The notes under the pieces: generated by a model
Seen by the model: only the letters and a program-made list of their open reading frames with translations
What the model was told of the DNA's origin: nothing
Database searches by the model: none
NCBI GenBank assembly: GCA_010093705.1
Contig: MU006093.1
Location: forward strand, 1,013,301 to 1,077,300
Length of the DNA: 64,000 nt
DNA from: Patellaria atrata CBS 101060
Lineage: Eukaryota
Direction of reading: 5' to 3'
Made by a program: the position numbers and the translations under genes
Shown here: positions 13,823 to 19,141 of the stretch, piece by piece
Numbering within the stretch: position 1 is the first letter of the stretch
How the letters are laid out: the number at the start of each line of letters is the position of its first letter

Positions 13823-16800
13823 TTATTTGATACCATGTGCCTCCAAGAACCCACTTAAGCTGAAGAAATGCAAGTGTTGATACTGTTTGCGCCAATTTGG
13901 TTTATCGACTGTGTGTACCACGATGAAGCGACGGAAGTTTGTGACTTCACAACACGCCCAGCCGGCAAACCATTCAACCAGGCATTCTGTGGCCTTAGTT
14001 CTGTCTTTTTTCCACATTTCAGGATATGCTGGCCAGAATTCTACACGCTCGGAAACTAGAGACGCGAGTGGACCAGGATTGAGTGGACTCGACTTGACCT
14101 GTAACTGCGGAGGGGCTAACTTCTCAAGTTCTTGATATGTCTCTGCAATGCTTTATCACGGCTGTTAGTGGAAACGGCAACAAGCGCCCTTTTTAGAGAG
14201 TAACGTACATCGGATCTTGTGGCTCTTCAAATATCCTATCAAACATCCAAGGCAAGAGGCCCGGACGACCAGCGAATTTACGATTCTTGAATCCTTGAGC
14301 TTTGAGAGCATCCTCCTTTACGAAATATTTAACGATCCGAAGTGCTTCGGACCGATAGTCTACAAATACATCATCGGTGATGCATATAACTCTGCCATTA
14401 GGAAACAATGATATTAGCTTGTAATTTGGTTGCACCTGTAGGTTCTCCGCGTGAGGATCATATCCTAGCCGGAAGAATTCATACTGTCTGCCAAGGAACC
14501 GGAAGTCCAGTTGTGGTATTGCGGAATACTCCGTAATGTCGGGATGGATCTGGTCAAGGTCAGGAAGCGACAATATCAAGACACATTCTATGACTCACTA
14601 TGATCACACCGGACCTCGTCTTCTTACCAAATTGAGTCCAGGATCCAGGTGCTTGAAGGCGATAGACCACCGCATCCATAGAGAGGAATACACGTGTAAG
14701 GAGATCAAGCTCCACTTCTTGAAATGAAGGGATCATCAGAAAGACATTCTTCTCTAGGGGCTGTGGAGTTGTCCCTTTGAATATCTTCTCGGGGTTAATG
14801 TCAAATATTCTCTGAATGATTGTCTCGCCGTTTGTGGAAGTATCGAGCTCAATTGTCTGACGATTAATTCGATGTGATTGGATAGGTGACCTAACGTAAT
14901 AACGTAGTAATGCCTGCTCTGGGAAGTCGCACACAGAATCAAGATATTTCCGCTTCTCAACGTGTGCTGGATAGATGATCATCGTAAAAGACTTATGAAA
15001 TACTACTGCAGCAGTATTGTGAGTCATTAGAGATTCCGCATACGTTTGGAATATTCGCCGCGACTCCTTAGTCGGCAGGATGTAACCAAATGTCGAGGTC
15101 TCGTCGTCGTCGTATCCATAGGACTCAAAGTCATCGGTTAAACATATGGAGTCGATTATCAACTTTCCAGAAGCACCAATCTCTATCACCAATCGTTCCC
15201 TCGCATCGGGGCTATTGTTCATGAGCATAATGGGTAAATCTGTTGTCCCATTGCCAGTATTGATTGTTAATATCACACCGATGCCAACCTCTTCGAAATC
15301 GATCATTATGTCGTGCTCTCTGGACTGAGCAGGTGGACTCAGAATTCGGCTCCTGCTGTGGACCGCTGAATTGTTTACACTAAGGTGGGGTGCAGGCCAG
15401 TCAAGAGCCTCATCGCTTAGGCATGACCCTCTGACCCCAAAATCAGGATTGAGAAATGGTTTACCGGTTGCCACTTTTTGTCTCTCTAACAGGAGTTTGT
15501 CTTAAAATTGGTTAGTACAGACTGTGTGATTAAATAAGCACAGGGTAAACAGACCTGGATCAGTCCGTGGTTGGAAAATACCCGGGGGATTGGCAACTAA
15601 GTAGCAGTCCTGATGGGCGTATGCGCAAGGACGATTGGCTCTAAAATTAGAGCAATATCCGAATTTCCAGAAGAAACAAGTCACGCTATTTTTGGGTGAA
15701 AAGTTATGCATGAGGTTATAATTGCCAATCTGAGGAGCTCCCGACCCCTTTGTAACTTCTTCAAGCGTATTCGGAGCACGGGATAGCTCAGTAGAAACTT
15801 CAATTGGACCTTTTGCTTTGTCAAGGTTGCCTACGAAGCCAGTGTTCCAATGAGCGTAGGTGCAAGCCGCTGCACTACGGTTACATACCCCGGTGAAGTA
15901 CCAGAAGTAACAAGTGAGTGGCCGGGGTAAGTATTTAGGGATGCTTAATTCCGCCTTACTCTGAGAACCCATTGAACTTGAGTTTTCATTGTGTAAGTAT
16001 CGACATTTTGGGTCTTTACATTTCCCGTAGTACCAGAAGTAGCATGTGAAAGGGATTTTGGAGCTACGTGATATCGGATCGCTGTTCATTGACTCAATGG
16101 GCGAAGGTTCCTCGTTTGGAGGGGTAGGAGTACTATTGTGCGTCGAAAACTGTCTAGATAAAGCTTCGGAGGGATTGAATTGTCCTAAGCTCGTAGTCCC
16201 TTTGAGCTCATCGGTATTCTGCCCTTCGGGGGTCGTTGGCCTGGTACTTGGGCTATCGGTTATAGCTATACCCTTCTTTAAAATGCTACCAGACGTCTTG
16301 GGTTTATCCGGGTATATCAGATCATCAAGATTTGGCGCAGGTTCAGTGCGGCCATATGTCTCGTAGCGCCAGCGCTCTGATAAAGTTGTAAATTTGCGAG
16401 CTTTCTCGTCGTGTCTAACGTTTGGGTTCACCCGCGGTCGCCTGATCTGTTTAGGTTTGAACATATTCGCAAACAATGCTGCGCCTGTCTTCCTCACTAG
16501 AAAATGCATTAGCTCAATTTCAATCGAAATCCAACGGATCCTTTAAACAAATGCATATAGCTTATGTCTGGCCTATGAAACCGCTTGACCGAAAAACGAG
16601 GCATGAACGATGGGAAGGGGAAGTTCTGTGTCCAATCTTACATTTGCCAGGGACTGTTCTTTTGGCCATGTTGACATTCTTTGCTTGATTGGTGCTATCA
16701 GTTCGCTTGATGCTAGATAGATCGGGACGTACTTTTGAAAAACGAAGCTGGTCCGTGTTCAAGCGAGGAAGAGTAGGTTTGGTCATCAAGGTGCTATTGG

Positions 16801-17647
16801 TTGGTTGTTTCTTTAAAGTTGTTGATTTAGATGTCAAAGGGCGAGCTGATGATTCTTCTGACCTGGATTTCTTACGAAGACGTAAGCTTTCCACCCCTTT
16901 TTCTAACGGCGATTTAGTGGGAAAATCATCATCTTCGCCTGATGAAGCTTTTCGGTCACGATACGAACGCTTCCTGTTAGTTGGTACAAGGCCATCCTCA
17001 TCGTCGTCCACAATGAATCCACCTAACGTTGTGTCAAATGTTGTCTTCCGCCTCCTGATGCTTCGTATTGGTACGTCAGGAGAGGATCCTCTAGATGGCC
17101 ACTCATCCTCAAAGTTAGCATCCGGCATTTGTTCGTCTTGGGACTCCCGGATCCACATCCCCTTTTTGAGTCTCTTTCTCATTCTACGAAGGTCGCGACG
17201 CTCTTTCTTTGCTGCTTGCTCATCTTTTTCTCTTTCCCATGCTTCGACGTCGAATTTCTGCTGACCGAAGCGGTCGATTCGCTTCTTCTGTATGAGCCAA
17301 TCTTCCAAAGCAGGTTTACAGCTGTCAAGATGTTCTGTTGGCTCCCATGTACAACTAGAGCGCTGTGAGTAAAACAATATGAGCACAATTGATAGGAGTT
17401 GAAATACTCTTTCAATTCATAACCTTCCCACTGGGCAAATTTTCAGTTAGGAGAAATATAGTTATTTCATGATACTCACCTTGACCAGGAAAAATTGGCT
17501 CCCATCTTGCCCTTCCTTTTCAGCCAGTATACGTTCTACCGGCCATTCATCATCACTTCTATACTCCTCTTCTTCGGTGTAATCCGTAGGCACAGAGTCA
17601 TCGTCGCTGTCGTTGTCAACCGCGCTTCTACGTGGCCAATTCATCAT
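13823..17647 (-). CDS. Chp1-like chromodomain protein with three CCCH zinc fingers; ~7 exons including a 23-nt microexon at 17408-17430 (introns 17431-17479, 17355-17407, ~16498-16641, ~15487-15554, 14550-14598, ~14151-14208)
   Basis: The spliced chromodomain reads EWPVERILAEK...FFLVK|WEGYELKD|CTWEPTEHL. The CCCH motifs are TCYFWYYGKCKDPKCRYLH, TCYFWYFTGVCNRSAAACTYAH and TCFFWKFGYCSNFRANRPCAYAH. C-terminal blocks (IIYPA, VFLMIP, PGSW, LFPNG.VI.ITDD, LVEWFAGW..FRRFIVV) resemble fungal proteins annotated Chp1p. Confidence 0.8.
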
Positions 17648-17870
17648 TCTAATTGATCCAAGATTTAGTTAATGAACACAAGCATTAATATGAAAGCTCA
17701 TTCTAGGAATTGAGTTAAGATTCAAAAGTAACTGCAAGGAGTGCAGGCGAGTTTCTGCGGTTAAATTCTGGTAGTGTTGCTGCAAGCTACTTTTACGCGT
17801 GCATGCAATTGAGTTATGTGTGACTCCTATAGTAATCTATGGGAAGCTCCATTGCAAAGCTTGAACCGTT

Positions 17871-17898
17871 ATACGTGATACGTGATACGTGATACGTG
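17871..17898. repeat. Tandem repeat (ATACGTG)x4 in the divergent chromodomain-gene/Rab11 intergenic region
   Basis: The sequence atacgtg atacgtg atacgtg atacgtg is read directly. Confidence 0.9.
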
Positions 17899-18257
17899 AC
17901 ATGTGTTTTTGTTGATGTTGATTTTTTTGAGGTAGAGTCGATACTTGCAGCTGTAGCTACGGCAATAAAGTTATTCTGCAAGGTACGGAGCTTTCCGGTG
18001 GTCACCGCTTGAGCAGGGGCTCGACCGCCCAGCACGAGGGATCCCACGTCTCATCAACGCCGCTCTTAACTTTCAACTCCCATAAGAACTCAGGCAGCTA
18101 AAAACTTACCGTAACACTCTCTTCTCTTTGCGCATCGCGCTTACTTGCTTTATCTTGCCGCTTCACAAACCTCTTAACTTCTACCCTTTCAAATTCAACT
18201 GCTGGGCTTGGCGGACATTTCTTCTTATAGGCCCCAGGCTCAAACTACTCCTCAAAA

Positions 18258-19141
<884 letters not shown>

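Follow-up and report, generated by a model that had tools for sequence, protein, structure and literature searches.

A probable Chp1 orthologue with tandem CCCH zinc fingers in the Dothideomycete Patellaria atrata

Does a single gene of the Dothideomycete Patellaria atrata CBS 101060 encode a protein that could tie methylated histones to RNA, and how is this protein related to Chp1 of Schizosaccharomyces pombe? The question is raised by a minus-strand gene at positions 17647-13823 of the window, i.e. the whole 64,000-nucleotide (nt) stretch of contig MU006093.1 (positions 1,013,301 to 1,077,300) that was analysed, for which an earlier note, made from the sequence alone, had proposed a spliced chromodomain, three CCCH zinc fingers and a Chp1-like C-terminal half. 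The domains of the encoded protein follow one another in the order chromodomain, basic helices, disordered linker with a conserved motif, three CCCH fingers, SPOC, DomII and PIN (Table 1). As N- and C-terminal parts alike lead to Chp1, with the domains in the same order, the gene is very probably the Pezizomycotina orthologue of S. pombe Chp1, and a Dothideomyceta form of Chp1 with tandem CCCH fingers appears to be the best explanation of the locus.

The C-terminal half is predicted to be folded, with predicted local distance difference test (pLDDT) values mostly above 90, and the AlphaFold2 model of P0001, the 837-amino-acid (aa) public record of this gene, is confident over residues ~385-837. 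In a Foldseek search with this model the S. pombe Chp1-Tas3 core (3TIX) ranked first (E 4.5e-17, 483 columns, 12% identity), the following entry reaching only 7.2e-5, and VIA-align placed residues 383-837 of P0001 on Chp1 515-957 (Z 18.1, 391 aligned, root-mean-square deviation (rmsd) 9.9), with SPOC domains and then PIN domains as the subsequent matches. A separate model of DomII and PIN (pLDDT 93.5, pTM 0.90) also retrieved 3TIX first (E 1.1e-9 versus 5.2e-3 for the next entry; TM 0.54-0.57) and was aligned with 3TIX residues 666-959 at Z 17.5 (rmsd 5.1, 261 aligned), the runners-up being Nmd4 (Z 8.6), SMG5 (8.1) and the PIN domain of SMG6/EST1A (8.0). The features that mark the Chp1 family at this end of the chain, a SPOC domain and DomII followed by a C-terminal PIN fold, are present in the predicted structure, and the globular, Chp1-like C-terminal half suspected in the earlier note is thereby borne out. 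At the sequence level, an 84-member profile gave a weak match to the SPOC domain of 3TIX (E 0.021; only one of its 41 hits had its best stretch in the C-terminal part), a PDB sequence search with P0001 gave no match, and no Pfam model, including those specific to Chp1, matched the C-terminal half. By eye, three short family motifs, LFPxGG, RRF and a GxxxPFD behind the chromodomain, can also be spotted in Chp1 of Schizosaccharomyces species as given in a published supplement (PMC9963178). The label "Chp1p", which the note mentions for similar fungal proteins, was returned by no search; relatives with a name appear as "Chromo domain-containing", "C3H1-type" or hypothetical. We presume that filamentous-fungal proteins carry an automatic "Chp1p" label in some databases; if this is so, others have already guessed the homology, and probably did so from the chromodomain.

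Nuclease activity of the PIN domain appears unlikely from its residues, active PIN ribonucleases having three to four conserved acidic residues in the active site. In the family alignment (P0001 numbering) an Asp after strand 1 is near-invariant (123/126), position 784 is Asp or Glu in 89/125 and an Arg is kept in 121/125, and the residue that ends strand 1 is Thr in 105/126; by the usual register of PIN motifs, this Thr presumably sits at the position of the first catalytic Asp.

Relatives were collected by a HMMER scan with P0001, which returned 465 proteins at E ≤0.001, and the best 150 of these 465 were analysed, with profiles iterated on the 150 for the calls of chromodomain and C-terminal block. 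Because the P0001 query contained the fingers, finger-bearing relatives were favoured. A chromodomain and the C-terminal block occur in one chain in 77 of the best 150 relatives (the full-length relatives below), and 76 of the 86 relatives of at least 900 aa that have the C-terminal block also have the chromodomain.

The chromodomain is divided over exons 1-3, and once spliced it keeps the aromatic cage claimed for it, with W35 in EWPVE and W57 and Y60 in KWEGY. The spliced domain matches residues 30-88 of the relative P0002 (E 7e-13 in the set of 150 proteins), and P0002 passes the Pfam Chromo cut-off. When a 107-member family profile was compared with PDB sequences, the Chp1 chromodomain was ranked first (2RSN/3G7L, E 4.2e-15 and 3.5e-14), ahead of HP1alpha (4.1e-13), Clr4 (2.9e-12), CBX2 (6.5e-10) and CBX7 (9.2e-10). 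Each of the three cage positions is aromatic in about 72 of the 77 full-length relatives, and the domain is acidic (pI below 5.5) in 72 of them, a property typical of HP1-type binders of methylated histone H3 lysine 9 (H3K9me) according to a Zymoseptoria tritici preprint (bioRxiv 2022.09.21.508279). With net +9, the helices next to the chromodomain are basic, and a Chp1-like W...G...F[DEN] pattern follows the chromodomain in 52/77 relatives. The cage, the acidity and the profile ranking are indirect signs that the domain may bind H3K9me2/3 with high affinity. A retrotransposon origin of the chromodomain was ruled out because the domain is intron-split, single-copy and N-terminal. The P. atrata genome contains many chromodomain matches, many of them with internal stops.

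Both ends of the protein are joined in a single gene model. Seven exons and six GT-AG introns (49, 53, 145, 54, 49 and 58 nt for introns 1-6) yield, on spliced translation, one stop-free frame of 1138 aa that runs from an ATG at 17647 to a stop codon ending at 13823; an alternative intron-4 donor at 15581 would give 1129 aa. The gene is present as a single copy in its genome. Introns 4-6 of this model are identical in P0001, and the earlier warning that gene finders could split the gene proved apt, as P0001 begins at exon 4 and lacks the chromodomain; since it starts at the exon-4 boundary, intron 3 is the weak joint. Its donor at 16641 reads GTAAGA and its acceptor CTAG, a branch site is present, removal of the intron keeps the reading frame, and the relatives can be aligned to either side of the joint. 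Other in-frame donors have poorer signals, and three in-frame options for micro-exons within intron 3 were not adopted, every donor being poor. The splicing, including the 145-nt joint, is thus proposed from splice signals and homology to relatives. The open spliced frame and the 76 of 86 long relatives that form one chain speak for a single polypeptide, the split public model of this gene speaks against it. Two sequencing runs that cover the stretch in one piece, free of joints, are probably DNA from a single sample and carry no information on expression or splicing.

Table 1. Coordinates of the Chp1-like gene and of its exons, domains and motifs (positions in the window)
Feature	Position	Strand	Remarks
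Whole gene, seven exons, 1138-aa Chp1-like protein	13823..17647	-	open spliced frame; single copy; relatives with both ends
Exon 1: acidic N-terminal tail and chromodomain strands 1-2 (W35)	17480..17647	-	donor GTGAGT, branch CTAAC
Chromodomain, aa 33-90, over introns 1-2, pI 4.2, cage W35/W57/Y60	17276..17551	-	match to Pfam-positive P0002
Exon 2 (23 nt): cage W57 and Y60	17408..17430	-	
Exon 3: chromodomain end, basic post-chromodomain helices, disordered linker	16642..17354	-	weak Pfam Chromo match, E 0.046
Intron 3 (145 nt, GTAAGA...CTAG): least certain joint	16497..16641	-	public model starts just past it
Exon 4: conserved linker motif and three CCCH fingers	15555..16496	-	
Conserved ~30-aa helical linker motif, aa 336-365	16306..16395	-	helix, pLDDT ~80
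CCCH finger 1 (C-x7-C-x4-C-x3-H), TCYFW lead	15988..16047	-	
CCCH finger 2 (C-x8-C-x6-C-x3-H), TCYFW lead	15847..15915	-	
CCCH finger 3 (C-x7-C-x8-C-x3-H), TCFFW lead	15610..15681	-	
Exon 5: SPOC and most of DomII	14599..15500	-	
SPOC barrel, aa ~686-822	14881..15291	-	PHF3 SPOC Z 14.4, rmsd 2.6, 130 residues; within 3TIX match
Chp1 DomII-like alpha/beta domain, aa ~835-965, over intron 5	14403..14844	-	3TIX 666-959
Exon 6: DomII end and PIN start	14209..14549	-	
PIN-fold domain, aa ~966-1138, over intron 6, probably no nuclease	13826..14402	-	Z 8.0-8.6 to PIN domains
Exon 7: remainder of PIN and stop codon	13823..14150	-	

All three TC[YF]FW-led fingers that had been announced at about 15610-16050 were recovered. 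In 2000 shuffles of the protein no sequence contained three such fingers and two contained at least one. The fingers of the P. atrata protein fall below the Pfam cut-offs, and a family profile matches the fingers of CPSF4/Yth1, MBNL and TTP in PDB with E down to 3e-12. Across 291 family fingers, a Trp stands three residues past the first Cys in 268, and the residue two past the third Cys is Phe in 164 and Tyr in 87 (251 aromatic in total). Conserved aromatics are expected for base stacking in CCCH fingers. Both the spacing and the stacking-type aromatics of RNA-binding fingers are present at the sequence level; with these aromatics and the likeness to CPSF4/Yth1, MBNL and TTP, the fingers may bind RNA.

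The RNA recognition motif (RRM) that lies between chromodomain and SPOC in the Chp1 family is not found here: it was absent from Pfam scans of the exons and of 20 full-length members, and no such fold is seen in the predicted model of aa 302-1138 (aa 95-301 lie outside this model). The linker windows are hydrophilic, with a hydrophobic fraction of at most 0.27 versus 0.38-0.39 in the folded domains. The idea that the fingers take the place of the RRM thus stands as a description of the architecture, with fingers between chromodomain and SPOC and no RRM found, and fails as a required replacement, since 12 of the 77 full-length relatives have neither a finger nor a detected RRM. The linker motif is present in 70 of the 77, including all 12 fingerless ones; a complex prediction of this motif (P0001 28-70) with SPOC-DomII-PIN (380-837), made with no alignment used and with a poorly folded partner, scored 0.00 and speaks neither for nor against a contact.

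The survey of orthologues for fingers that had been proposed shows that 65 of the 77 full-length relatives carry one to six, with the finger pattern widened to admit the long-spaced type of P0055. Among the 19 named members, P. atrata included, fingers occur in 11 of 13 Dothideomyceta (the exceptions being records of Friedmanniomyces and Aureobasidium) and in none of six other Pezizomycotina (Candelina, Xylona, Thelocarpon, Xylographa, Teloschistes and Brigantiaea); seven of the ten proteins of one batch of this sample had been chosen as fingerless by the first finger pattern, and the taxonomic classes of most named genera are those we take them to have, four genera having been looked up. A tree built from DomII+PIN of 90 sequences unites eight fingerless proteins, all six named non-Dothideomyceta among them, in one group (FastTree support 0.996) and nests three other fingerless members among finger-bearing ones. 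Rather than belonging to the family core, the fingers seem to have been added in one lineage, as 12 of 77 relatives, these six among them, lack both finger and RRM. Their gain in Dothideomyceta would be the simpler reading, not proven because the tree is unrooted.

Fingers of the TC[YF]FW type were also encountered elsewhere. One lies near residue 1427 of P0157, a 1821-aa fungal RNA-dependent RNA polymerase (RdRP) and a possible gene-model fusion. A separate family (P0038, P0156, P0128, P0149 and P0150) has 3-8 such fingers without chromodomain or Chp1 core; its named members belong to Lecanoromycetes (Letrouitia, Wetmoreana), and three of its proteins have the fingers behind a weak RPA-like OB-fold match. 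In Lecanoromycetes the Chp1-like proteins are fingerless. In the P. atrata genome, another finger of this type is found in a short open reading frame without Pfam match on contig C14 (L004:1249-1761, minus strand). In the lichen-fungus relatives P0129 and P0148 (aa ~160-198), and probably P0111, a weak Myb-like insert follows the chromodomain and fingers are absent.

The family spans at least Dothideomycetes, Arthoniomycetes, Lecanoromycetes, Candelariomycetes, Xylonomycetes and Thelocarpales. The ESM Atlas has two clusters made up mostly of Basidiomycota sequences, one of 95 members that can be aligned with the C-terminal block (TM 0.58, 335 residues) and one of 104 members for the chromodomain, with a score of 0.83; both are leads for an extension of the family to Basidiomycota.

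As for function, we lean slightly towards a scaffold for RNA silencing that is tethered to H3K9me. The acidic chromodomain with its three aromatics would dock on H3K9me2/3 nucleosomes at repeats and subtelomeres, the CCCH fingers, perhaps with the basic post-chromodomain helices, would hold single-stranded nascent RNA of those loci, and SPOC-DomII-PIN, like its counterparts in Chp1 and TASOR, would be a docking platform without catalysis, whose docked partners might break down the RNA or strengthen H3K9 methylation. The C-terminal block of S. pombe Chp1 binds Tas3 and is required for silencing (PMC5391189), and its PIN domain is needed at subtelomeres and dispensable at centromeres (bioRxiv 2020.03.09.974832). 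The partners of the P. atrata protein could be reached via Argonaute, through a diverged Tas3, or by a HUSH-like route that bypasses Argonaute. Argonaute, RdRP, Stc1 and an H3K9 methyltransferase are all represented in its genome, by five profile matches for Piwi, six for RdRP, one for Stc1 and one for Pre-SET, their presence not showing any coupling; the Tas3_C-hel and Tas3-like_N profiles had no match in this genome, and no control passed the cut-off either. Without a link to Tas3 or Argonaute the protein cannot be filed as a subunit of RITS, the complex for RNA-induced transcriptional silencing. On contig C8 (~443900-454900) of the same genome, an RdRP and a Piwi match lie ~8 kb apart. A bolder version, which we regard as rather doubtful, is a single-chain, Argonaute-independent "fungal HUSH" of Dothideomyceta that would combine H3K9me reading, capture of nascent repeat or transposon RNA via the CCCH fingers and recruitment of methyltransferase or RNA decay via SPOC-DomII-PIN, with the linker motif replacing Tas3.

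Other readings differ in how many products the locus makes and in what the chromodomain recognises. It is very unlikely that two products are made here, a chromodomain-only protein and an 837-aa finger-SPOC-DomII-PIN protein. If a donor at 16732 (GTACGT, preceded by A) were joined to the acceptor at 16497, the upstream frame would run into a stop and the ATG of P0001 would arise, whose first Met falls on the exon-4 boundary; moreover, intron 3 is about three times as long as the other five introns, and the chromodomain went undetected in 10 of the 86 long relatives. However, the frame stays open with the donor at 16641, which has both a branch site and a CTAG acceptor, the alignment of relatives spans both sides of the joint, and 1138 aa fits the length of the 76 long relatives that are single chains. 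For the chromodomain, preference for K9 or K27 is not set by cage residues alone and Polycomb chromodomains are also matched by the family profile, yet the E-values of the K9 readers Chp1, HP1 and Clr4 are better than those of CBX2/7 by two to five orders of magnitude, the domain is acidic as in HP1-type readers, and the N- and C-terminal ends of the protein both point to Chp1. Reading of H3K27me3 or another methyl-lysine in the service of Polycomb-type facultative heterochromatin therefore appears highly improbable, even though the accessible text of PMC9720130 states that no H3K27me chromodomain reader has been identified in Z. tritici.

The fingers and the C-terminus also allow interpretations other than RNA silencing at H3K9me. 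An orthologue of Chp1 in which the fingers are structural or bind proteins, leaving an H3K9me reader and scaffold that contacts no RNA through them, would suit their absence from the eight-member clade and from at least three nested members, their number ranging from 0 to 6, and the greater constancy of the linker motif. We nevertheless consider it unlikely, as the Trp and the third-Cys aromatic are strongly kept, the closest solved fingers are RNA binders and one finger of the same type occurs in a fungal RdRP. Quite unlikely, too, is a general adaptor of co-transcriptional RNA processing, with SPOC on the phosphorylated C-terminal domain of Pol II or other phospho-motifs (as in PHF3, SHARP and RBM15) and CPSF30-like fingers reading 3'-end signals. 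The SPOC barrel superposes on PHF3, FPA, SPOCD1, SHARP and RBM15 at Z 12-14.4 and CPSF4/Yth1 give the best finger matches, whereas the combination SPOC-DomII-PIN matches only Chp1 among solved chains and the chromodomain is of the heterochromatin-reader type; the P. atrata SPOC, with a net charge of -7 and a single conserved basic position, provides weak evidence against a phospho-binding patch.

Several observations weigh against our preferred reading, a Chp1 orthologue that serves as a scaffold for RNA silencing on H3K9me. Identity to the Chp1 core is 11-13%, the rmsd is high both for three domains and for two, and no sequence in PDB was hit at E up to 10 by a C-terminal profile of 35 members. 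What the chromodomain ranking tests is the profile of the family and not the P. atrata domain itself, with a lead over HP1 of only ~100-fold, and the family rarely has Trp at the first cage position (Tyr in 63 and Phe in 9 of 77). The public record begins with a Met at the exon-4 boundary and is without the chromodomain exons. Folded RNA-binding domains are no constant of the family, because the 12 fingerless relatives also show no RRM. Finally, heterochromatin of Neurospora is independent of RNA interference (RNAi; PMC9963178), and a link between RNAi and heterochromatin is not established in Z. tritici (PMC9720130), as far as the accessible text of these papers goes.

Compared with S. pombe Chp1, the protein shares the N-terminal chromodomain with its three-aromatic cage, the basic helices next to it, the long disordered middle and the SPOC-DomII-PIN C-terminus, and Chp1 is its top PDB match both by structure (3TIX) and by chromodomain (2RSN/3G7L). 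It differs in having three CCCH fingers and the conserved linker motif where Chp1 has an RRM (~305-373), and in the low identity of the core. TASOR/TASOR2 and MPP8 of the HUSH complex, compared by description, likewise provide a SPOC and DomII/PIN scaffold and, in MPP8, an H3K9me chromodomain, but in the P. atrata protein the chromodomain is in the same chain as the scaffold; the pseudo-PARP domain (DUF3715) and DomI were not listed in the Pfam scans of this protein or its relatives. RNA binding by HUSH is assigned mainly to periphilin. HUSH engages RNA without known use of Argonaute (bioRxiv 2020.03.09.974832, PMC7619638). The SPOC barrel resembles those of PHF3, SHARP/SPEN, RBM15, FPA and SPOCD1 (rmsd 2.6-3.4), and several of these proteins combine SPOC with RNA-binding domains; DomII-PIN, in contrast, is unmatched in any of those structural alignments, and to our knowledge these proteins lack a chromodomain. 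The fingers share C-x7/8-C-x4/8-C-x3-H spacing and conserved aromatics with CPSF4/Yth1, MBNL and TTP, and are unlike them in being widely spaced, TC[YF]FW-led, below the Pfam cut-offs and placed within a chromatin reader. A protein with chromodomain and CCCH fingers described in PMC10799480 is the Mit1 remodeller, a different family.

In the accessible text of a 2023 survey, Chp1 was found in S. pombe only, a Pezizomycotina row labelled "Chp1" in its table being an M. oryzae protein of 351 aa whose chromodomain is C-terminal, and the chromodomain of Clr4 was lost in the Pezizomycotina ancestor (PMC9963178). Mucor is reported to have no Chp1 or Tas3 (PMC12863538, accessible text). The accessible portions of PMC9720130 and of the Cbx1/Cbx2 preprint (bioRxiv 2022.09.21.508279) do not mention Chp1, it is absent from the main text of a PIN classification (PMC5499597) as far as accessible, and nothing on the family stands in those of PMC7763443, PMC8105982, PMC2875855, PMC7026591 and PMC10799480. 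Our literature search, whose coverage leaves out most subscription papers, returned no description of this chromodomain-SPOC-DomII-PIN family, which is apparently widespread and unstudied. The full architecture has thus been hidden in Pezizomycotina at the low identity given above. How filamentous fungi target and spread H3K9me is named as an open question in the literature (PMC9720130, PMC9963178), for which the family offers a concrete single-copy candidate, KMT1 enzymes of filamentous fungi being without chromodomain. The family sits between RITS and HUSH, and from whether it depends on Argonaute one could tell the ancestral state. If the "fungal HUSH" were true, the coupling of reading and writing that is missing from KMT1/DIM-5 of Pezizomycotina, which have no chromodomain, would be provided by it, and scaffolds of the Chp1/TASOR type would be widespread in fungi and no speciality of fission yeast.

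The neighbouring genes, which encode a short-chain dehydrogenase (SDR), a Rab11-type GTPase and Sey1, suggest no functional cluster. A divergent promoter region of ~610 nt is common to the Chp1-like and the Rab11-type genes, and within it a 7-nt unit, TGATACG, is repeated in three perfect copies and one imperfect copy at window positions 17869-17899. The Rab11/Ypt31-type GTPase gene itself (18258-19141, plus strand) is ordinary and has an apparent 13-nt micro-exon near 18342-18354.

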